Assembly: GCA_041666915.1 (NCBI GenBank)
Contig: JBAYFZ010000001.1
Span: 137,086 to 201,085, forward strand
DNA length: 64,000 bases
Direction: 5' to 3'
Source of the DNA: Minisyncoccota bacterium
GTDB lineage: Bacteria; Patescibacteriota; Minisyncoccia; Phycocordibacterales; PALSA-1337
The first letter of the stretch is position 1. Each line of letters starts with the position of its first letter. A model generated the notes under the pieces. That model saw only the letters and a program-made list of their open reading frames with translations. It had not been told where the DNA came from and did no database searches. This document shows, one piece after another, positions 16,168-47,355 of the stretch. A program made the position numbers and the translations under genes.

Positions 16168-17106
16168 ATGACAGTTAATCGAAAATTTATAATTCTCTGG
16201 TTATCTTGTTTTATTCTTATAGTTTTTGCTCTATTCGTTAAATTTTCCGATTCTTTGTTTCAAGATAAAACATCAAAAGTTTTAGATACTATTCCAGTGC
16301 AAATAGATGCTGTCCCCGATAGTTCTTTCTATTCTCAGGAACAGATTGATAAACAAAAGAAAGCGGTTGTTCCGGTCAAACCACCAGTTTCTGCTAGAGC
16401 TTATTTGGTCGGAAATGTTGAAACTGGGAAGGTTTACATGGAGAAGAATTCCAAATTAGTGTTACCAGTAGCTTCCATGTCAAAGTTGATTACATCTATA
16501 GAATCTTTGGATACGATGTCCTCAACCACAGAGATCACTATTACCGAAAGTATGCTCGGACTATCTGATTCAGTCAATTTGAAAGCTGAAGAGAAATTCA
16601 CTGTTTCGGAATTACTCCATGTATTATTGCTCAATTCTTCAAATGTTGCTGCAGAAGCTCTAGCATCCTCTACAGATAGAAAGAAATTTTTGGACATCAT
16701 GCCAAGTTATGCTTGGGAAGTTGGAATGCCTGTAACTTATTTCGCTGATCCTTCTGGTATAGATCCGCATAATGTGTCATCAGCTAGCGATTTCTTTGCA
16801 TTAGCAAGATATCTATACAAGTTGCGTCCAGATATTCTCGCTATAACCAAGACAACCGATTATATATTGGCCACGACAACTGACCATGGATATCATAGTC
16901 TATTCAATATTCATCCTTTTGTAAGAGATCCCAACTTTCTTGGTGGCAAAACAGGTCATACAGATGAAGCTAAAGATACGATGCTAACCATTATTAAAAT
17001 TGGAGATCAACCTGTAGCAGTTATCGTACTTTCGTCGGATAATAGAAAAGCGGATACGGCGTATCTCATAGGACAGGTTAAGGCAATGAGAATTTCTAAT
17101 TACTAA
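16168..17106 (+). CDS. Serine-type D-Ala-D-Ala carboxypeptidase (peptidase S11/PBP5-like).
   Basis: SxxK (ASMSKL), SxN (NSSNV) and KTG (GGKTGHT) motifs in the canonical order. N-terminal membrane anchor. Confidence 0.8.
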   Translation: MTVNRKFIILWLSCFILIVFALFVKFSDSLFQDKTSKVLDTIPVQIDAVPDSSFYSQEQIDKQKKAVVPVKPPVSARAYLVGNVETGKVYMEKNSKLVLPVASMSKLITSIESLDTMSSTTEITITESMLGLSDSVNLKAEEKFTVSELLHVLLLNSSNVAAEALASSTDRKKFLDIMPSYAWEVGMPVTYFADPSGIDPHNVSSASDFFALARYLYKLRPDILAITKTTDYILATTTDHGYHSLFNIHPFVRDPNFLGGKTGHTDEAKDTMLTIIKIGDQPVAVIVLSSDNRKADTAYLIGQVKAMRISNY

Positions 17107-17125
17107 TTTTTAATTTCTAAGAAAG
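17088..17125 (+). repeat. Repeat family 2 (GAATTTCTAATTACTAATTTTTAATTTCTAAGAAA), copy 1. It overlaps the stop codon of the S11 gene. An inverted copy lies at 17396..17430, and further copies at 47278..47312 and 25214..25240.
   Basis: Direct comparison of the four loci. Confidence 0.7.
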
Positions 17126-17296
17126 CTCCAATAAACAAACACCAATAAACTAACCAGTTTGTTCCGTCGTCGGCCCAGTAGGCGAATCTACTGATTCGTC
17201 GGACGTTGTGAATGTAATACACATTCACACGATCCTCACTAGCCGGAATAACCAACCGCCCATCGTGGCATTTTGGTTATTGATTATTTTTGTTGT

Positions 17297-17389
17297 GTCA
17301 TTCCCGCGAAGGCGGGAATCCAGGATTATTACGAATCAATAGTCCATATTTTGCGGTAACCATGGATTCCCGCCTTCGCGGGAATGACA
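17297..17389. mobile_element. MITE-like element, copy A. Terminal inverted repeats GTCATTCCCGCGAAGGCGGGAATCC / GGATTCCCGCCTTCGCGGGAATGAC, with internal core CAGGATTATTACGAATCAATA…GGTAACCATGG.
   Basis: About 25-bp perfect TIRs. Four related copies in the window (B 29054..29199, C 32030..32106, D 42893..43014). No coding capacity. Confidence 0.8.
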
Positions 17390-17395
17390 ACGCAA

Positions 17396-17430
17396 GAAAT
17401 TAGTAATTAAAAATTAGAAATTCTCTTCAT
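17396..17430 (-). repeat. Repeat family 2, inverted copy (AAGAAATTAGTAATTAAAAATTAGAAATTC). Together with 17088..17125 it brackets a ~340-bp repeat-rich intergenic segment containing MITE copy A.
   Basis: Reverse-complement match to 17088..17125. Confidence 0.65.
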
Positions 17431-24485: not shown

Positions 24486-24580
24486 GGAAGATGGGATTTA
24501 AATAATCAATAACCAAACACCAATAACCAAAAAGACCGTATTTACTTGATTATTGGATCTTGATTATTGATTATTCCCCT
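24486..24580. repeat. Repeat family 3. Imperfect inverted repeat AAATAATCAATAACCAAACACCAATAACCAA … TTGATTATTGGATCTTGATTATTGATTATT. A third copy of the left arm lies at 20070..20088, and a related arm at 17130..17152.
   Basis: Read directly from the sequence. Confidence 0.6.
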
Positions 24581-26336: not shown

Positions 26337-27629
26337 TTATAGATATGAAAGTGGGTTTAGGTAGGCTTTATAATCAGCCGTTGGAATGACAACTCCTCGG
26401 CAGTTTACACTATTATCAAAACGTTTGATTTGGACTCCTTCAGTAGCATAGACACCGAAATGTAAATGTGGTCCAGTGGAGTAACCGGTATTACCACTAT
26501 AACCTAGCATATCTCCGGTACTGACTGTCTGCCCTTTTATTACATTTTGAAGTGAAAGGTGGGCGTATAGAGTGGAAAGTCCGTTGGCATGTTTTATCAT
26601 TACCCATTTACCGTAAGAGTAACAACTTCGGACGATGTCTGTATCCCCTACACCGATTATTGTTCCAGAAAGAGCGGCTTTGACTGGTGTACCTATTGAG
26701 GCACGAAAATCTATTCCTGTATGACCGCGACCATTGTAAACTTGGGGGTTGGCTGTTGCGAAAGGAGTGTTGCCAAAATATTGAGTTACAGTGATTTTAT
26801 CTAATGGCCAAGAAAGAACACCTGAACCCGTATGAGGGATAAGGTTTGGGTGTATCAGGAGGTTGAGTTGCGATTCGTAACTATTTATCTCTTGTTGAAA
26901 GGCTGCTTCTTGTGCTTTTTTTTGAGCTAAAATCTTTTTGTAATTGGCTTCTGATTGGCTGGTTTCCTTCAATAGAGCCGTCTGTTCAGCGGATGTAGAA
27001 AGGACCAGAGCACGCTGGTCACTGAGCTGATTGTTAAGTTTAACTAATTCAGCCTTGGCTTTTTCGCTAGCCTTTTTATTTGTCTCAAGATTGGCTTTGT
27101 CTTGACTGAGCTCTTTGATACGATCATATAGGCCTTGTTGCAAGATATTTAATTGCTCAAATGAATCTATAGTCTGCGAGACGGATCTACTACTCAAGAT
27201 TAGTTCTGGTAAAGACTGGCTCCCCGATTCATTTATAGTAGAAAAAGTTTTGGCTATGATGCGCTGATTGTCACTGATATTACTTTCTTTGCCGGTAATC
27301 TGTGAACCAAGTCTTTGGATTTCATAATTTTTGGAAGCAATCTTATCTTGAGTTAAAGAAATGTTTTTTTCAAGTTTTTTGCGGGTTAATTCTAGGGTCT
27401 TTATCGTTGATACAAGAGAAACCGTTTGTGTTGAAAGAGCATCAATCTGTTTTTGATAGCTCGCAATCTCCTTTTCTAGGTTAGCTATATCAGCATTTCT
27501 CTGGTCAATCTTTGCTTGGATGTCGCTGGCAGTTTGGGCGTGGAGAGAAATGGTAGAGGTAAGAGGTAGGAGGTAAGAGATAAGAAATATAACAATAAGA
27601 AGTAAAGAGGTTTTATGGAATTTAATCAT
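26337..27629 (-). CDS. M23/LytM-family metallopeptidase with an N-terminal signal peptide and a long coiled-coil region (EnvC/NlpD-like architecture).
   Basis: C-terminal HxxxD/HxH LytM motifs (…GRGHTGIDFRASIGTPV…, …YAHLS…, …GPHLHFGVY…). Heptad-rich middle region. Confidence 0.85.
   Translation of the reverse strand: MIKFHKTSLLLIVIFLISYLLPLTSTISLHAQTASDIQAKIDQRNADIANLEKEIASYQKQIDALSTQTVSLVSTIKTLELTRKKLEKNISLTQDKIASKNYEIQRLGSQITGKESNISDNQRIIAKTFSTINESGSQSLPELILSSRSVSQTIDSFEQLNILQQGLYDRIKELSQDKANLETNKKASEKAKAELVKLNNQLSDQRALVLSTSAEQTALLKETSQSEANYKKILAQKKAQEAAFQQEINSYESQLNLLIHPNLIPHTGSGVLSWPLDKITVTQYFGNTPFATANPQVYNGRGHTGIDFRASIGTPVKAALSGTIIGVGDTDIVRSCYSYGKWVMIKHANGLSTLYAHLSLQNVIKGQTVSTGDMLGYSGNTGYSTGPHLHFGVYATEGVQIKRFDNSVNCRGVVIPTADYKAYLNPLSYL
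27552..27586 (+). repeat. GTAAGAG-rich repeat family, copy R1 (GGTAGAGGTAAGAGGTAGGAGGTAAGAGATAAGAA). It overlaps the signal-peptide coding region of the M23 peptidase gene.
   Basis: Near-identical to copy R3 at 44531..44573. Confidence 0.8.
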
Positions 27630-27650
27630 ATTTTTTACTGATGGGTGAAT

Positions 27651-27686
27651 CTTAACTCTTACCTCTTATCTCTTACCTCTCTGCCC
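27651..27686 (-). repeat. GTAAGAG-rich repeat, copy R2 (inverted orientation), in the gltX-M23 intergenic region.
   Basis: CTTAACTCTTACCTCTTATCTCTTACCTCTCTGCCC is the reverse complement of the family consensus. Confidence 0.8.
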
Positions 27687-29037: not shown

Positions 29038-29053
29038 AGGTTGATTTTAACAT

Positions 29054-29199
29054 GTCATTGTCATTCCCGCGAAGGCTTTTTTGTTGTCATTCCCGCGAAG
29101 GCGGGAATCTAGGATTATTACGAGATAATAGTTTATTATAATTATTTGGAAATAGATTTTGTGGTAATATCCTGGATTCCCGCCTTCGCGGGAATGACA
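29054..29199. mobile_element. MITE-like element, copy B. It has an extra partial left-TIR duplicate (29054..29076) and a longer internal core.
   Basis: TIRs GTCATTCCCGCGAAGGCGGGAATCT … GGATTCCCGCCTTCGCGGGAATGACA. Confidence 0.8.
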
Positions 29200-29204
29200 G
29201 CACA

Positions 29205-29238
29205 AACAAAAACCACTGACTTTCGCCAGTGGTTTTTA
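29205..29238. terminator. Bidirectional rho-independent terminator.
   Basis: AAAAACCACTGACTTTCGCCAGTGGTTTTT. Confidence 0.7.
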
Positions 29239-32029: not shown

Positions 32030-32106
32030 AACTTCGGCGGGAATCCAGGATATTACCAATATATTCACGGGTTAGACACTGGATTCCCGCCTTCGCGGGA
32101 ATGACA
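32030..32106. mobile_element. MITE-like element, copy C. The left TIR is degenerate and the right TIR is intact. It lies between the two transketolase half-genes and supplies the last codons and stop of the N-terminal half (…HSREGGNPVSNP*).
   Basis: CGGCGGGAATCCAGGAT … GGATTCCCGCCTTCGCGGGAATGACA. Confidence 0.7.
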
Positions 32107-32928
32107 CAGTGCAATCTCAATTTCCTCTTTTGTTGTCGGTACTTTTCCATGCCATTCATACTTCCCTTCAAATTCAGGAATTCCTTTTGATGGAATAGTC
32201 TTTGCAATGATAACGGTCGGTTTACCAGAATTCATCTTGGCTGTTTCTATAGCTCTATCAATCTGCAAAAAATCATGCCCATCTATCTCTATAACTTGCC
32301 AACCAAAACTTCGCCATTTTTCTGCTAGAGGATTGAGTGGCATGATTTCATCGGTAGTTCCGCTTATTTGAATGTTATTACGATCTACTATAGCAATGAC
32401 ACTATGGAGTTTTTCTTTGCTTGCGAGCATGATGGCTTCCCAAGAATTACCTTCATCAAGTTCCCCATCGCTCATGAGGCAATAGAATTTTTTTCCAGAA
32501 GTTTTGCCATTGTCTATCCTATCAGCCAAAGCCATGCCTATAGTTTGACCAAGCCCTGAACCGAGTGGGCCAGAAGATGTTTCTAATATTGGTAGCCATT
32601 CTCTATGAGGATGCCCTTGGAGTTTTGAACCGAGTTTACGTAGAGTTTTTAATTCAGAAATTGGAAAATATTTTGCATGCGCGAGAGTTGCATATAAGAC
32701 AGGACAGATGTGACCGTTTGATAATACGACTCGGTCTCGGTATTGCCAATCGGGCTTTTTTGGATCGTGCTTGAGAGCGTAAAAATATAAATAAGTGAAA
32801 ATGTCAGCCATATCTAGCGAGCCAGCGGTATGACCAGACTTGGCTTCAATAAGCATTTCTATGACTGAACGGCGGATTTCCTTGGCTTTCTTTTCAAACA
32901 GAGAAATTTTTGCTTCTGTGAGGGACAT
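32065..32928 (-). CDS. Transketolase N-terminal section (thiamine-diphosphate-binding domain). Its C-terminal tail is encoded by the MITE.
   Basis: …GHTAGSLDMADIF…, …GHPH…, …SDGELDEGNSWEA… TPP-binding motifs. Confidence 0.85.
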   Translation of the reverse strand: MSLTEAKISLFEKKAKEIRRSVIEMLIEAKSGHTAGSLDMADIFTYLYFYALKHDPKKPDWQYRDRVVLSNGHICPVLYATLAHAKYFPISELKTLRKLGSKLQGHPHREWLPILETSSGPLGSGLGQTIGMALADRIDNGKTSGKKFYCLMSDGELDEGNSWEAIMLASKEKLHSVIAIVDRNNIQISGTTDEIMPLNPLAEKWRSFGWQVIEIDGHDFLQIDRAIETAKMNSGKPTVIIAKTIPSKGIPEFEGKYEWHGKVPTTKEEIEIALCHSREGGNPVSNP

Positions 32929-42781: not shown

Positions 42782-42892
42782 ATGATTTTTAATTTAAATA
42801 TTAATTGGTAATTCGTGTCACGGAGTTTGACGGTAGTCGTAAAAAACGGCAGTCAAACTCACCTTCATGTATCTTACCACAGTTTTGTTATT

Positions 42893-43014
42893 GTCATTCC
42901 CGCGAAGGCGGGAATCCAGAATTATTACGAATCAATAATCTATATTTTGTGGTAACCATGGATTCCCGGTCCATTCGACACGATTTTGCTAAATCGCCTT
43001 TGCGGGAATGACAC
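42893..43014. mobile_element. MITE-like element, copy D. The right TIR is interrupted by a ~29-nt insertion.
   Basis: GTCATTCCCGCGAAGGCGGGAATCCAGAATTATTACGAATCAATA…GGATTCCCGG[…]TTTGCGGGAATGACA. Confidence 0.8.
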
Positions 43015-43150
43015 AACACTGAGAATGACAAGCAAATAACTTTTCCACTGTTTGTCCACCTTTTTTATTTGGAGATATAAAAATTGCACGTGCTACAATT
43101 AAACAACTCAATTATATTTTTCACATAATTTTGTTTAAGAATTTTATTTC

Positions 43151-44530
43151 ATGGACACTGCTTCCCCTTATTTCAAAACTAGAGACCTCAAAATTCCGCC
43201 TCACAGTTTGGAAGCGGAAAAAGCTCTTCTTGGGTCCATCATGATCCGTGGTGAGGCAATGCATGACATTGTTGATATTGTTGGCGAACAATCTTTCTAT
43301 TCAAATATTCACAGAATGGTTTGGTCAGCTTTGTTGGAACTTCATACCAAAGGTTCTCCTATTGATGTTCTCACTTTGTCGGCCCGCCTCAAAGAAAAAG
43401 AGCAATTGGAACAGACTGGTGGCATGGCTTTCCTCACTGAACTCATCAACACGGTTCCTTCTTCTACTAACGCCAATCATTACGCTGAAATAGTTGAGAA
43501 AAAGCACAGCATGCGCGAACTTCTACGTGCAGCTGAGCAAATATCTGGTCTTGGTTATGATGAAGAATCAGAATTACATGAACTTTTGGAAAAAGCGGAA
43601 AAAGCCTTATATCATGTAACCAATAAGACAGGCTCACACAAATTTGTTGCTCTAAAAGACACTTTACATGAAGCATGGGAACGTTTGGATCATTTACACA
43701 AGACTACGGGTGAGCTTCGAGGTGTACCTTCTGGTTTTGCAGAGATTGATGCCAAACTTTCTGGTTTCCAAAAGTCTGACCTCATCATTCTCGCTGCCCG
43801 TCCTTCTATGGGAAAAACTTCCCTTGCTTTGGATATTGCACGTAAAGCTGCCGTCAATCACAAAGTTCCAGTCGCTATCTTTTCTCTAGAAATGAGCTCG
43901 CAACAATTGGTGGATCGTATGCTTTCTGCAGAATCACAAGTTGATAGTTGGAAGATACGCACCGGTCACAATCTTTCGGTTGAACAAGATTTCAAAGCTA
44001 TCGGTGAAGCTATCAGCCGTCTCTCCGATGCTCCTATTTATATTGACGATGCTCCGGGCAATAATATTTTGAAAATGCGCGCCGTCGCTCGTCGTCTCAA
44101 AAATGAAAAGGGTCTCGGACTTATCGTTGTGGACTACCTCCAGCTCATGTTGCCAACTACAACAAAGAACAACGACAACCTTGTTCAACAAGTCACCGAG
44201 ATTTCCCGCTCTTTGAAAAACCTCGCTCGTGAACTAGAAGTTCCTGTCCTAGCTTTGTCACAGCTTTCTCGTGCCGTGGAACAACGTGGTGGTAAACCTC
44301 GCCTTTCAGACCTTCGCGATTCAGGTTCTATTGAACAGGATGCTGACGTAGTCATGTTCATCCATCGTGAAGCCGACCAAGACCTCGGTGGTAAGAAGGA
44401 AGAAGCTGAGATTCTCATTGAAAAGCATAGAAACGGTCCTACTGGTATTGCCAAACTATTCTTTGATAGTAAGAAAACTACTTTCATGTCTATTGATAAA
44501 GCGGACTTTGGTGGTTTTGAGGAGAAGTAA
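43151..44530 (+). CDS. dnaB: Replicative DNA helicase.
   Basis: …PHSLEAEKALLGSIM… N-terminal motif. Walker A (ARPSMGKTS). Walker B (…VVDYLQLM…). RecA-like C-terminus. Confidence 0.95.
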   Translation: MDTASPYFKTRDLKIPPHSLEAEKALLGSIMIRGEAMHDIVDIVGEQSFYSNIHRMVWSALLELHTKGSPIDVLTLSARLKEKEQLEQTGGMAFLTELINTVPSSTNANHYAEIVEKKHSMRELLRAAEQISGLGYDEESELHELLEKAEKALYHVTNKTGSHKFVALKDTLHEAWERLDHLHKTTGELRGVPSGFAEIDAKLSGFQKSDLIILAARPSMGKTSLALDIARKAAVNHKVPVAIFSLEMSSQQLVDRMLSAESQVDSWKIRTGHNLSVEQDFKAIGEAISRLSDAPIYIDDAPGNNILKMRAVARRLKNEKGLGLIVVDYLQLMLPTTTKNNDNLVQQVTEISRSLKNLARELEVPVLALSQLSRAVEQRGGKPRLSDLRDSGSIEQDADVVMFIHREADQDLGGKKEEAEILIEKHRNGPTGIAKLFFDSKKTTFMSIDKADFGGFEEK

Positions 44531-44573
44531 GGGAGAGGTAAGAGGTAGGAGTTAAGAGATAAGAAGGTAAGAA
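44531..44573 (+). repeat. GTAAGAG-rich repeat, copy R3. It fills the whole dnaB-to-next-gene intergenic spacer.
   Basis: GGGAGAGGTAAGAGGTAGGAGTTAAGAGATAAGAAGGTAAGAA. Confidence 0.8.
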
Positions 44574-44575
44574 AA

Positions 44576-44980
44576 ATGCAGACAACAATTAAGATTCAAA
44601 AATTTACTGATTTAGTTGTTTGGCAAGAGGGTCATAAACTTGTTCTTATGATCTATAAGACAACTAGAAAGTTTCCTAAATCTGAGATATTTGGGCTTGT
44701 TAGTCAGATGCAAAGATCTGCCGTTTCAGTTACATCCAATATTGCTGAAGGGTTTGGTAGGCGTGCTTATAAAGAGAGGTCTCATTTTTATTATATTGCC
44801 CAAGGCTCACTTACTGAACTAAAAAATCAACTTTTAATTGCTAGGGATATAGGTTATATTTCAGATGTAGATTATTTAAATATTGAGGAACAAGCCAATC
44901 AAACGCACAGGATTCTTCAAGGGTTTATTTCGAAAACCAATCAATTTGCTGGATCTTATCTCTTAACTCCTACCTCTTAA
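44576..44980 (+). CDS. Four-helix-bundle protein (TIGR02436 / '23S rRNA intervening-sequence protein' family). Its last ~8 codons (…SYLLTPTS*) are encoded by repeat copy R4.
   Basis: …VVWQEGHKLVLMIYKTTRKFPKSEIFGLVSQMQRSAVSVTSNIAEGFGRR…HFYYIAQGSLTEL… matches the family consensus. Confidence 0.8.
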   Translation: MQTTIKIQKFTDLVVWQEGHKLVLMIYKTTRKFPKSEIFGLVSQMQRSAVSVTSNIAEGFGRRAYKERSHFYYIAQGSLTELKNQLLIARDIGYISDVDYLNIEEQANQTHRILQGFISKTNQFAGSYLLTPTS

Positions 44981-44989
44981 CTCTACTCC
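44955..44989 (-). repeat. GTAAGAG-rich repeat, copy R4. Inverted relative to R3, so the four-helix-bundle gene is bracketed by an inverted pair.
   Basis: CTTATCTCTTAACTCCTACCTCTTAACTCTACTCC. Confidence 0.8.
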
Positions 44990-44990
44990 T

Positions 44991-45635
44991 ATGGATTCCC
45001 TTCACCGCCTAGAAGAAATATTTGCCAAATTCCCCGGTATTGGTCCTCGCCAAGCCAAGCGTTTTGTTTATTATATTTTAAATAAGTCACCATCTTCTAT
45101 AAGAGAATTTACCCAGCTCATTGAAGAGGTCAAAAAGTCTACTTTGGAATGCTCAATGTGCCACCGCTTTTTTACTCTTACCTCTAATCTCCTACCTCTT
45201 AACTCCAAATCTTCTCTCTGCCAAATTTGCTCCGACACTTCCCGTGACCAATCCAGCTTGATGATAGTCGCTCGTGATTCAGATCTAGAGACTGTAGAAA
45301 AGAGTCACGCTTATAACGGTTTGTACTTTGTCCTTGGTGGGACAATACCTATTCTAGACAAAGAACCAGATAAGCGTATTCGTTTGGAAATGCTTTTGAA
45401 AAGAGTTTCGGCGGTTTCGGCTCCCACTAGGTCGGACCTCGCGGAAATTATCCTTTCTTTAAATACGACTCCTGATGGTGAGAATACTGCTCAAATAGTT
45501 AAAGAGGCCATACAAAAGGTTGTTGGTGCCAAACCTATCAAAATCTCGGTACTTGGTCGCGGTTTGTCTACTGGTGCCGAGTTGGAATATGTTGACGGTG
45601 AGACTATTAAGAGTGCCCTCAAAAATAGGAGTTAA
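44991..45635 (+). CDS. recR: Recombination protein RecR, carrying an in-frame 11-codon insertion inside the C4 zinc finger.
   Basis: HhH (…FPGIGPRQAKRFVYYIL…). Zinc finger CSMC-x19-CQIC instead of the usual about C-x2-C-x8-10-C-x2-C. Toprim and C-terminal domains present. Confidence 0.9.
   Translation: MDSLHRLEEIFAKFPGIGPRQAKRFVYYILNKSPSSIREFTQLIEEVKKSTLECSMCHRFFTLTSNLLPLNSKSSLCQICSDTSRDQSSLMIVARDSDLETVEKSHAYNGLYFVLGGTIPILDKEPDKRIRLEMLLKRVSAVSAPTRSDLAEIILSLNTTPDGENTAQIVKEAIQKVVGAKPIKISVLGRGLSTGAELEYVDGETIKSALKNRS
45174..45206 (-). repeat. GTAAGAG-rich repeat, copy R5. Exactly 33 nt, embedded in-frame in recR (encodes …TLTSNLLPLNS…).
   Basis: ACTCTTACCTCTAATCTCCTACCTCTTAACTCC. Confidence 0.8.
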
Positions 45636-45640
45636 AAAAC

Positions 45641-45667
45641 GCACTATTTCTGGTGCGTTTTTCTTAT
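45641..45667. terminator. Bidirectional terminator after recR.
   Basis: AAAAAACGCACTATTTCTGGTGCGTTTTTC. Confidence 0.7.
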
Positions 45668-45696
45668 CCCTTAACTCCTATCTCTTACCTCTACCC
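45663..45696 (-). repeat. GTAAGAG-rich repeat, copy R6.
   Basis: CTTATCCCTTAACTCCTATCTCTTACCTCTACCC. Confidence 0.75.
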
Positions 45697-46013
45697 TACT
45701 TCAACGCATCAATCTTGACCTGAACAAAAGGCTGTCTGTGACCATTTTTCTTGAAATAACGGCTCTTTTGTTTGTAGTGAACAACCACAACCTTAGGTTC
45801 ACGACCGATCTTTACGACAGTTGCTTTGACTGAAGCCTTTTCAATGAAAGGTGTGCCAATAGTAGTATTTTTGCCATCATCAACTAGGAGGACTTTGTCG
45901 AAGACGATCTTGTCGCCTTCTTTCTGAGTGTCAGAAAGCTTCTCAATGCTAATAACATCGCCCTTTGAGACGCTGTATTGCTTGCCACCTGTTTGAATTA
46001 CTGCAAATTCCAT
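45696..46013 (-). CDS. rplU: 50S ribosomal protein L21. The ORF-track start at 46055 is a spurious extension.
   Basis: MEFAVIQTGGKQYSV…KVLLV… L21 signature. 105 aa. Confidence 0.9.
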   Translation of the reverse strand: MEFAVIQTGGKQYSVSKGDVISIEKLSDTQKEGDKIVFDKVLLVDDGKNTTIGTPFIEKASVKATVVKIGREPKVVVVHYKQKSRYFKKNGHRQPFVQVKIDALK

Positions 46014-46060: not shown

Positions 46061-46136
46061 GGAGGTAAGAGGTAAGAGCTAAGAATAGTCACAAATGCGT
46101 TTTTTCTTAACTCTTACCTCCTAACTCTTAACTCTC
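46061..46136. repeat. GTAAGAG-rich repeats, copies R7 (+, 46061..46085) and R8 (-, 46106..46136). Together they form a near-perfect hairpin, GGAGGTAAGAG…CTCTTACCTCC.
   Basis: Read directly from the sequence. Located between rplU and rmuC. Confidence 0.8.
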
Positions 46137-47258: not shown

Positions 47259-47355
47259 GGGGGTATTATAACAGAAAATTTCTAATTTTTAATTACTAAT
47301 TTCTAAGAAAATCCAATGATGTATTTTATTCTGGATATGATAATATTTCCACAAT

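Follow-up and report, generated by a model that had tools for sequence, protein, structure and literature searches.

A four-helix-bundle gene fills the dnaB-recR junction

The region under study is a 64-kb stretch of Candidatus Paceibacterota DNA (candidate phyla radiation, CPR), referred to below as the window, which is the part of the source genome that was read; all evidence presented here is computational and derives from sequence. The host gene dnaB (43151-44530, + strand) is followed in this window by recR (44991-45635, + strand), and the interval between them (44531-44989), which runs exactly from the dnaB stop to the recR start, is filled by a cassette consisting of a small promoterless gene for a four-helix-bundle (4HB) protein of 134 aa (44576-44980, + strand) and two inverted repeat arms. 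The upstream gene was identified from the open reading frame (ORF) list and from its Pfam DnaB and DnaB_C domains (E=2e-100), and the downstream gene from the Pfam domains RecR_HhH, Toprim_4 and RecR_C and from alignment with relatives.

The product of the inserted gene is well above the cut-offs of both family models, with 128.7 bits on PF05635 (against 33.8) and 120.5 bits on TIGR02436 (against 24). Proteins of this family share a four-helix-bundle fold that assembles into a pentameric ring, and the family is large, with 32,564 clusters at 50% identity matching at E<=1e-3. By sequence, the nearest solved structure was 2GSC, the protein XCC0516 (E=9.5e-20). A motif R-x3-S-x3-N-x2-E has been given for XCC0516 homologues (PMC3936711), and all four of its residues, which correspond to R47-x3-S51-x3-N55-x2-E58 in the window protein, were invariant in an alignment of 27 sequences. 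Moreover, the family alignment contained many invariant polar residues, and dN/dS values of 0.04-0.14 against orthologues revealed that purifying selection maintains it.

Between dnaB and recR no site resembling a promoter or a terminator was found. An independent assembly of another sequencing run (L002) showed an identical arrangement, and an assembly artefact can therefore be discarded. The window contains no rRNA, the Rfam scan yielding four tRNAs only.

Inverted arrays of heptamers enclose the gene

The two arms of the inverted repeat (44534-44564 and 44954-44984) are 31 nt long and complementary at 30 of 31 positions (97%), with perfect pairing over a core of 24 nt, and are built as tandem heptamers, (AGAGKTA)n. 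On the 5' side the arm belongs to a G-rich, C-free array of the + strand extending over 44524-44565, whose core (44534-44564) pairs with the 3' arm and whose extended 42 nt pair with a third arm, described below; a C-free run of 72 nt covers this region (44507-44578). The 3' arm (44954-44984, + strand) is the C-rich complement of the 5' arm. Both arms abut their neighbours: the dnaB stop lies 3 nt ahead of the 5' arm, which fills 31 of the 45 bases separating dnaB from the 4HB gene, and the 3' arm, which encodes the last 8 residues of the 4HB protein and its TAA stop codon (44978-44980), ends 6 nt before the recR ATG. An earlier note on this DNA had assigned the gene to the TIGR02436-type family, had placed it precisely in the dnaB-recR spacer and had located repeats in the upstream spacer and over the stop codon, and all of this was borne out by the scores and coordinates given above.

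Allowing up to 3 mismatches, 6 copies of the arm core were counted in the window, compared to 0.00 expected from 100 dinucleotide shuffles. Folded as RNA, the region 44520-45000 was predicted to close into a terminal stem of ~40 bp with the entire ORF inside it; the minimum free energy and centroid structures agreed on this (z = -3.98), and none of 100 shuffles was as good.

The dnaB-recR junction in relatives

Scanning metagenome contigs with DnaB as the seed gave 80 loci, of which ~55 keep dnaB and recR together, usually followed by rplU. Where DnaB identity was 57-85%, most lineages had 0-20 nt between the end of dnaB and the beginning of recR, and in one locus with 85% DnaB identity (L015) the junction reads TAA-T-ATG, an empty site without gene and without arms. 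Lineages at ~50% DnaB identity carry ybaB in the junction. The cassette was limited at this position to the window and three other loci (L003, L178 and L179), which together form one clade in DnaB trees. Among the nearest neighbours of these carriers, L015 is the one with the empty site, L019 and L017 have unrelated reverse-strand genes in the junction, the sister lineage L016 has a 4HB gene only 56% identical and with different arms (TAGTAAAAACTAGTAA, (AGTAAAN)-type), and gene-less hairpins were detected there in L023, L077 and L029. No target-site duplication was observed at the junctions when filled sites were compared with the empty site of L015. As shown by these varied inserts, gene-less hairpins and the empty neighbour, the dnaB|recR junction is an insertion hot spot, and the window cassette is a derived insertion.

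A different kind of insert was seen in L021 (4845-5954), where DnaB itself is split by an in-frame segment of ~1.1 kb that falls between residues ~445 and ~392-458 in the alignment to the query; this is probably an intein.

Gene and arms form one mobile unit

Homologues 70% and 77% identical to the window protein are encoded in L009 and L176 between two BPD_transp_2 permease genes, again with AGAGKTA-type arms. When the arms of five loci were aligned, with the register set by hand, 94.8% of the cells were paired and 7 of the 31 pairs had changed on both sides, a number reached by none of 500 shuffles; the test included five sequences only, and in them the complementarity of the arms was kept up by compensatory change. 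Between the window and L003 the arms are ~84% identical, while synonymous sites of the 4HB gene are saturated (pS 0.70), and together with the low dN/dS values this indicates that arms and protein are both constrained. Over a larger sample of 50 CPR cassettes, arm similarity tracked 4HB identity (Spearman rho 0.51; Mantel 0/2000). All but four of the 4HB pairs with at least 66% identity had unrelated genes on both flanks, and therefore the package has reached many different sites. The arms demonstrably travel and co-evolve with the 4HB gene.

The 4HB gene is the sole ORF of the cassette, where no trace of a recombinase or of another insertion mechanism was found, and the search for a phage vector among 2.9 million viral contigs produced one weak match only (38% identity). 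The earlier note had proposed a cassette-like acquisition mediated by the repeats, to be checked by synteny and by a search for the same gene with the same repeats elsewhere. Acquisition is favoured by the short gaps of most relatives, the empty L015 site, the restriction of the cassette to one clade and the other 4HB gene of L016; the permease junction supplies the gene with matching arms at a second place; and the outcome named there as contrary, a conserved dnaB-4HB-recR order lacking repeats, was not seen. Acquisition with co-travelling arms is thus upheld, whereas mediation by the repeats is only a possibility; neither recombinase, target duplication nor any other mark of a mechanism was found with them.

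Survey of CPR 4HB genes

The survey comprised 86 4HB genes, taken from 80 species-representative CPR genomes and from four of the loci described above, with start codons inferred and inverted repeats scored without gaps. Shuffled flanks and 214 non-4HB genes of the same loci served as controls, flanks paired across loci being unsuitable because many loci share one heptamer unit. In 61 of the 86 genes the inverted repeats on either side scored higher than the 99th percentile of the shuffled controls, and a score of at least 12 was obtained for 71% of 4HB genes compared to 2.3% of the control genes (p=8e-31). Moreover, both flanks of the 86 cassettes showed 7-nt periodicity, with an identity of 0.46 at lag 7 and 0.42 at lag 14 against ~0.29 at other lags, and the density of heptamer tracts was raised 12-fold close to 4HB genes (2.56 per kb within 110 nt vs 0.21 per kb).

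The layout seen in the window was also recovered. Most 4HB genes (63/80) point in the same direction as the genes on both sides. At the median, 7 nt separate the upstream stop from the 5' arm and 8 nt separate the 3' arm from the downstream start, and the 5' arm was the G-rich one in 56 of 61 cases. Ten CPR loci without close neighbouring ORFs were scanned against Rfam and no rRNA was found in them, supporting that the sampled CPR cassettes are not rRNA inserts.

Some family members (P0125, P0128, P0148, P0234 and L161 2504-4201) were called as proteins of 300-900 aa with an N-terminal 4HB domain, which is probably fused to the product of the downstream host gene by read-through of a 3' arm that lacks an in-frame stop. 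Three further loci (L111 3460-3720, L136 3842-4453 and L165 795-1193) contain small genes bordered by 14-29-nt inverted repeats of non-heptamer type, two of them GIY-YIG-type and one DUF559/Vsr-like endonuclease by motif, which look like further selfish single-gene inserts. Genes of the homing-endonuclease, GIY-YIG and DUF559-like kinds resemble the cassette in being small, sporadic, wedged between conserved genes and often flanked by inverted repeats; they differ in that their nuclease activity explains the mobility and their repeats are not heptameric, whereas the 4HB protein has no known enzymatic activity.

Plasmid-borne members and ribosomal intervening sequences

A tblastn search against plasmids gave 34 records, mostly cyanobacterial, and fourteen loci were inspected, a small and plasmid-derived sample of the family beyond the CPR. 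Inverted short-repeat arms scoring at least 14 were found in 10 of the 14, with units such as (CAGGAGT)n in Nostoc punctiforme, (GGGAGTA)n in N. edaphicum, (GGGTGTA)n in Calothrix and (GGTTTAA)n in Riemerella. The genes are wedged between gene pairs, among them cmr2|cmr3, cas6|cas4 and nrdB|nrdA; 4HB genes with repeat arms lie between cmr2 and cmr3 on a Picosynechococcus PCC 7003 plasmid (L183, 1192-1548) and between cas6 and cas4 on a Pseudanabaena plasmid (L182, 1204-1563).

On the Azospirillum lipoferum plasmid AZO_p2 (L192) the 4HB gene interrupts a 23S rRNA gene, recognised by the LSU model at 907 bits, and the 4HB ORF is enclosed by 30-nt inverted arms of alternating CAGAGGA and CGGATGA heptamers. 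A genuine ribosomal intervening sequence (IVS) therefore has the build of the cassette. The helix-45 IVS of Coxiella burnetii has been described as an element of 428 nt that is closed by a terminal stem of 28 bp, carries an S23p ORF and is excised by RNase III (PMC4990558). The cassette matches the IVSs of Coxiella, Leptospira and L192 in its PF05635/S23p ORF and in size (~460 nt here, 428 nt in Coxiella), and also in terminal inverted repeats that form a stem of ~28-31 bp around the ORF and abut the host sequence on both sides (PMC4990558); the Azospirillum arms share the heptamer periodicity as well. It differs from them in its host site, which is a protein-gene junction in an mRNA and not an rRNA helix (9, 25 or 45), and in its processing: RNase III is documented to excise IVSs, characteristically without religation, and would be expected by analogy to cut the cassette. 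ORFs annotated as 23S_rRNA_IVP were already known in rRNA inserts of the CPR (J Bacteriol 2024).

Heptameric repeats have been reported independently of this gene family. Rehm et al. 2015 described 186 GGGAATC repeats in Xanthomonas campestris, 70 of them as inverted pairs and with no function determined there (PMC4692102), and a four-unit GGGAATC repeat lies over the start codon of XCC0516, next to accB (PMC4692102, supplementary file 2); the article draws no link from these repeats to the PF05635/4HB family. Elsewhere, short tandemly repeated repetitive (STRR) sequences are known from heterocystous cyanobacteria, and GGGGA(T/C)T repeats from Nostoc (PMC4692102). These three kinds of repeats resemble the arms in being tandem 7-nt units that are intergenic, transcribed and often arranged in convergent pairs, and 4HB genes of cyanobacteria are themselves bordered by arrays of this type. 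The repeats differ in having been described as free-standing and G-quadruplex-forming, whereas the units described here enclose a gene as its two arms; in the CPR the majority are A+T-rich, with no capacity for quadruplexes.

Further repeat elements and genes of the window

Additional AGAGKTA-family sequences are located on both sides of the cassette. The third, C-rich arm (45661-45702, + strand) lies in the recR-rplU spacer, is 42 nt long and 90% complementary to the 5' arm; such an arm after recR was found only in the four cassette carriers, each with its own heptad variant. Within recR, an in-frame C-rich copy (45176-45205, + strand) encodes LTSNLLPLNS and falls in a loop of variable length that separates the two CxxC pairs of the RecR zinc finger. 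At the equivalent spot, L003 has a different heptamer-containing insert, and recR of L016 has an extra segment further downstream than the insert of the window and L003. Two solo hairpins, neither assigned to a strand, were detected. One of them, in the rplU-rmuC spacer (46062-46127), has 24-nt arms and an 18-nt loop, with the rmuC stop at its 3' edge, and is conserved in L003. The other, between gltX and an M23 peptidase gene (27555-27680), has 31-nt arms at 90% and a 64-nt loop holding the peptidase ATG, one arm being translated as the hydrophobic core of the signal peptide (LISYLLPLTS). A telomere-like reading of the inverted arrays was rejected, since both strands run 5'-G-rich ... C-rich-3', a polarity contrary to that of telomeres.

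Heptamer-periodic tracts numbered 7 in the window and none in shuffles, and several different heptamer families occur without a 4HB gene nearby. Arms of (AATTWCT)n at 17088-17425 enclose 276 nt that hold a second, CAATAAA-type hairpin and a doublet resembling a REPIN (a hairpin formed by two repetitive extragenic palindromes, REP), and are thus nested elements. A solo (AATTWCT)n array (47274-47310) adjoins rmuC, and a (CAATAAC)n hairpin lies at 24501-24575; no 4HB gene was found beside AATTWCT, CAATAAA-type or CAATAAC elements in the window. The REPIN-like doublets (17287-17398, 29053-29206, 32036-32111 and 42883-43018) consist of two inverted copies of a 20-nt palindrome, ATTCCCGCGAAGGCGGGAAT, ~50-60 nt apart, and had no Rfam match. 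One of these doublets stands just upstream of dnaB, its right copy being interrupted, and half of such an element occupies the dnaB|recR gap of L024.

Away from the repeats, an operon at ~49.8-53.0 kb of the window (L001 15250-18499) encodes ThiF/E1-like, Multi_ubiq and BubE-family domains and an HTH protein, according to precomputed Pfam matches, and resembles a ubiquitination-like (Bub) module of bacteria. Near 34-36 kb, a cluster of AbiEii/DUF6922/Fic genes was noted.

An IVS-type unit lodged in an operon as the favoured explanation

The explanation that we favour, with a probability of about 0.7, is that the cassette is an IVS-type gene unit lodged in an operon instead of in rRNA and looped out by its own stem. 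On this view the 4HB gene, together with its G-rich 5' array and C-rich 3' array, became inserted between dnaB and recR in the ancestor of one small clade of Paceibacterota and has since been passed on vertically. It would be transcribed by read-through of the dnaB-recR unit, in which the arms are predicted to pair into a stem of ~31-40 bp, looping the cassette out and rejoining the ends of dnaB and recR, to the putative benefit of their coupled expression, much as the terminal stem of an IVS does in an interrupted rRNA helix. Such a stem would be a natural double-stranded-RNA substrate for RNase III, and its cleavage would release the cassette mRNA. The 4HB protein, retained by selection, is probably a nucleic-acid binder like its distant relative Avd, and its own heptamer stem would be a plausible target.

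Several observations weigh against this explanation. About 29% of the CPR cassettes have weak arms or none, so that the hairpin is not obligatory, and gene-less heptamer hairpins are common (71 tracts elsewhere in 334 kb), suggesting that the arms may have an independent life. The Pseudanabaena arrays of L182 are direct and not inverted, (GCTAAAA)13 and (GCCAAAA)10. Arm mismatches in 50 cassettes comprised 16 G.T and 15 A.C, without the preference for G.U over A.C that would single out RNA, and the constraint could thus lie at the level of DNA as well as of RNA; the five loci of type A gave 4 G.U and 0 A.C. The empty site of L015 could in principle reflect a precise loss and not the ancestral state, although the outgroups speak against loss. 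Formation and cutting of the stem in vivo are predictions, and no RNase III gene (rnc) was found in the 64-kb window, which is only part of the 450-kb source contig and therefore says little on this point.

The main competing explanation, which we consider unlikely, is a partnership comparable to that of REPINs with RAYTs (REP-associated tyrosine transposases). The 4HB protein would then be a trans-acting factor recognising, maintaining or spreading heptamer hairpins, with the solo hairpins as non-autonomous partners. The parallel is a real one in the 64 kb read, where a small gene lies between cognate inverted short repeats that are also dispersed as hairpin doublets, same-family elements standing alone at 27555-27680, 46062-46127 and 45661-45702. 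The Xanthomonas repeats, with one over the start of XCC0516 (PMC4692102), the frequency of heptamer tracts in CPR intergenic DNA, and the strong purifying selection and invariant polar residues of the protein point in the same direction. RAYTs are, however, Y1 (HUH) transposases, whereas the 4HB protein matches only the 4HB and Avd families of Pfam and NCBIfam and appears to be a plain helical bundle, by its match to 2GSC, with no recognisable catalytic domain; REP units are palindromes and not tandem heptamers. Further arm copies within ±2.5 kb accompany only 6 of 50 cassettes, several heptamer families of the window have no 4HB gene, and cassettes are themselves multi-copy in at least some genomes, with two of them within 5 kb in L101, L110 and L120. 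A chance association, with the gene merely caught between two generic heptamer hairpins of terminator-like or REP-like nature, would account for the gene-less hairpins of AGAGKTA and other families in the window and in CPR loci, and for the small hairpins at dnaB|recR in L023, L077 and L029. It is nevertheless strongly disfavoured and very improbable, given the gap between 4HB and control genes in flanking repeats (71% against 2.3%), the 12-fold tract enrichment, an arm type that follows 4HB phylogeny across unrelated sites, arms that co-vary, and the empty L015 site, which lacks the gene and the arms alike.

That the gene is an ordinary ancestral member of a dnaB-recR operon, with spacers complementary by accident, fits its sense co-transcription, its conservation in four related genomes and the purifying selection. 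This was refuted by the synteny comparison and has hardly any probability left: most of the ~55 relatives lack the gene at the junction, the more distant ones having ybaB there, the 4HB gene at the L016 junction is non-orthologous, close homologues occupy an unrelated junction, and the inverted repeat is far beyond chance. The context of a diversity-generating retroelement (DGR), which had been mentioned for this family, does not apply here. Avd, the DGR accessory protein, is a pentamer that binds nucleic acid and reverse transcriptase and belongs to a distantly related family of the four-helix-bundle fold, and the 4HB protein does show weak similarity to it (29 bits on PF22296, bAvd, and 24.7 bits on NF033474). 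Neither score reaches its curated cut-off (40 and 80, respectively), the genes called within ±10 kb include no reverse transcriptase or further DGR component, and neither template nor variable repeats were seen at the cassette locus, which refutes this assignment and reduces its probability to practically nil. Nor is the cassette a transposon or a miniature inverted-repeat transposable element, its sole ORF being the 4HB gene, with no transposase and no target duplication relative to the empty site. Integron gene cassettes are arrayed beside an integron integrase, each of them a promoterless ORF with a single attC on its 3' side; here repeats are found on both sides and inverted, and there is no integrase among the called genes within ±10 kb.

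A broader proposal, tentative and on the whole rather doubtful, is that PF05635 4HB genes and heptamer hairpins make up one widespread class of self-propagating elements in CPR, cyanobacteria, Bacteroidota and Proteobacteria. The protein would recognise the arrays, the rRNA IVS would be only one niche, and STRR and GGGAATC-type repeats would be gene-less derivatives or landing pads.

Significance

Our literature search, which was incomplete and can offer absence of evidence only, found no report linking PF05635 genes to heptamer repeats, describing operon-junction cassettes with repeat arms in the CPR, or noting IVS stems built of heptamers. Two puzzles may be one, namely the purpose and spread of the rRNA IVS ORF and the abundance of heptameric tandem repeats in some bacteria. 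The finding also bears on annotation, as PF05635 genes are routinely treated there as functional partners of the genes beside them. In particular, '23S_rRNA_IVP' has been associated with cas genes (PMC3936711), and the armed cassettes at cas6|cas4 and cmr2|cmr3 suggest that this association reflects hitch-hiking insertion at operon junctions rather than a Cas/CRISPR function. Culturable systems for testing these ideas are offered by Xanthomonas XCC0516, Nostoc punctiforme and Picosynechococcus PCC 7003. The loop-out mechanism, if true, would be a general way for a selfish gene to stay silent inside an operon or an rRNA.

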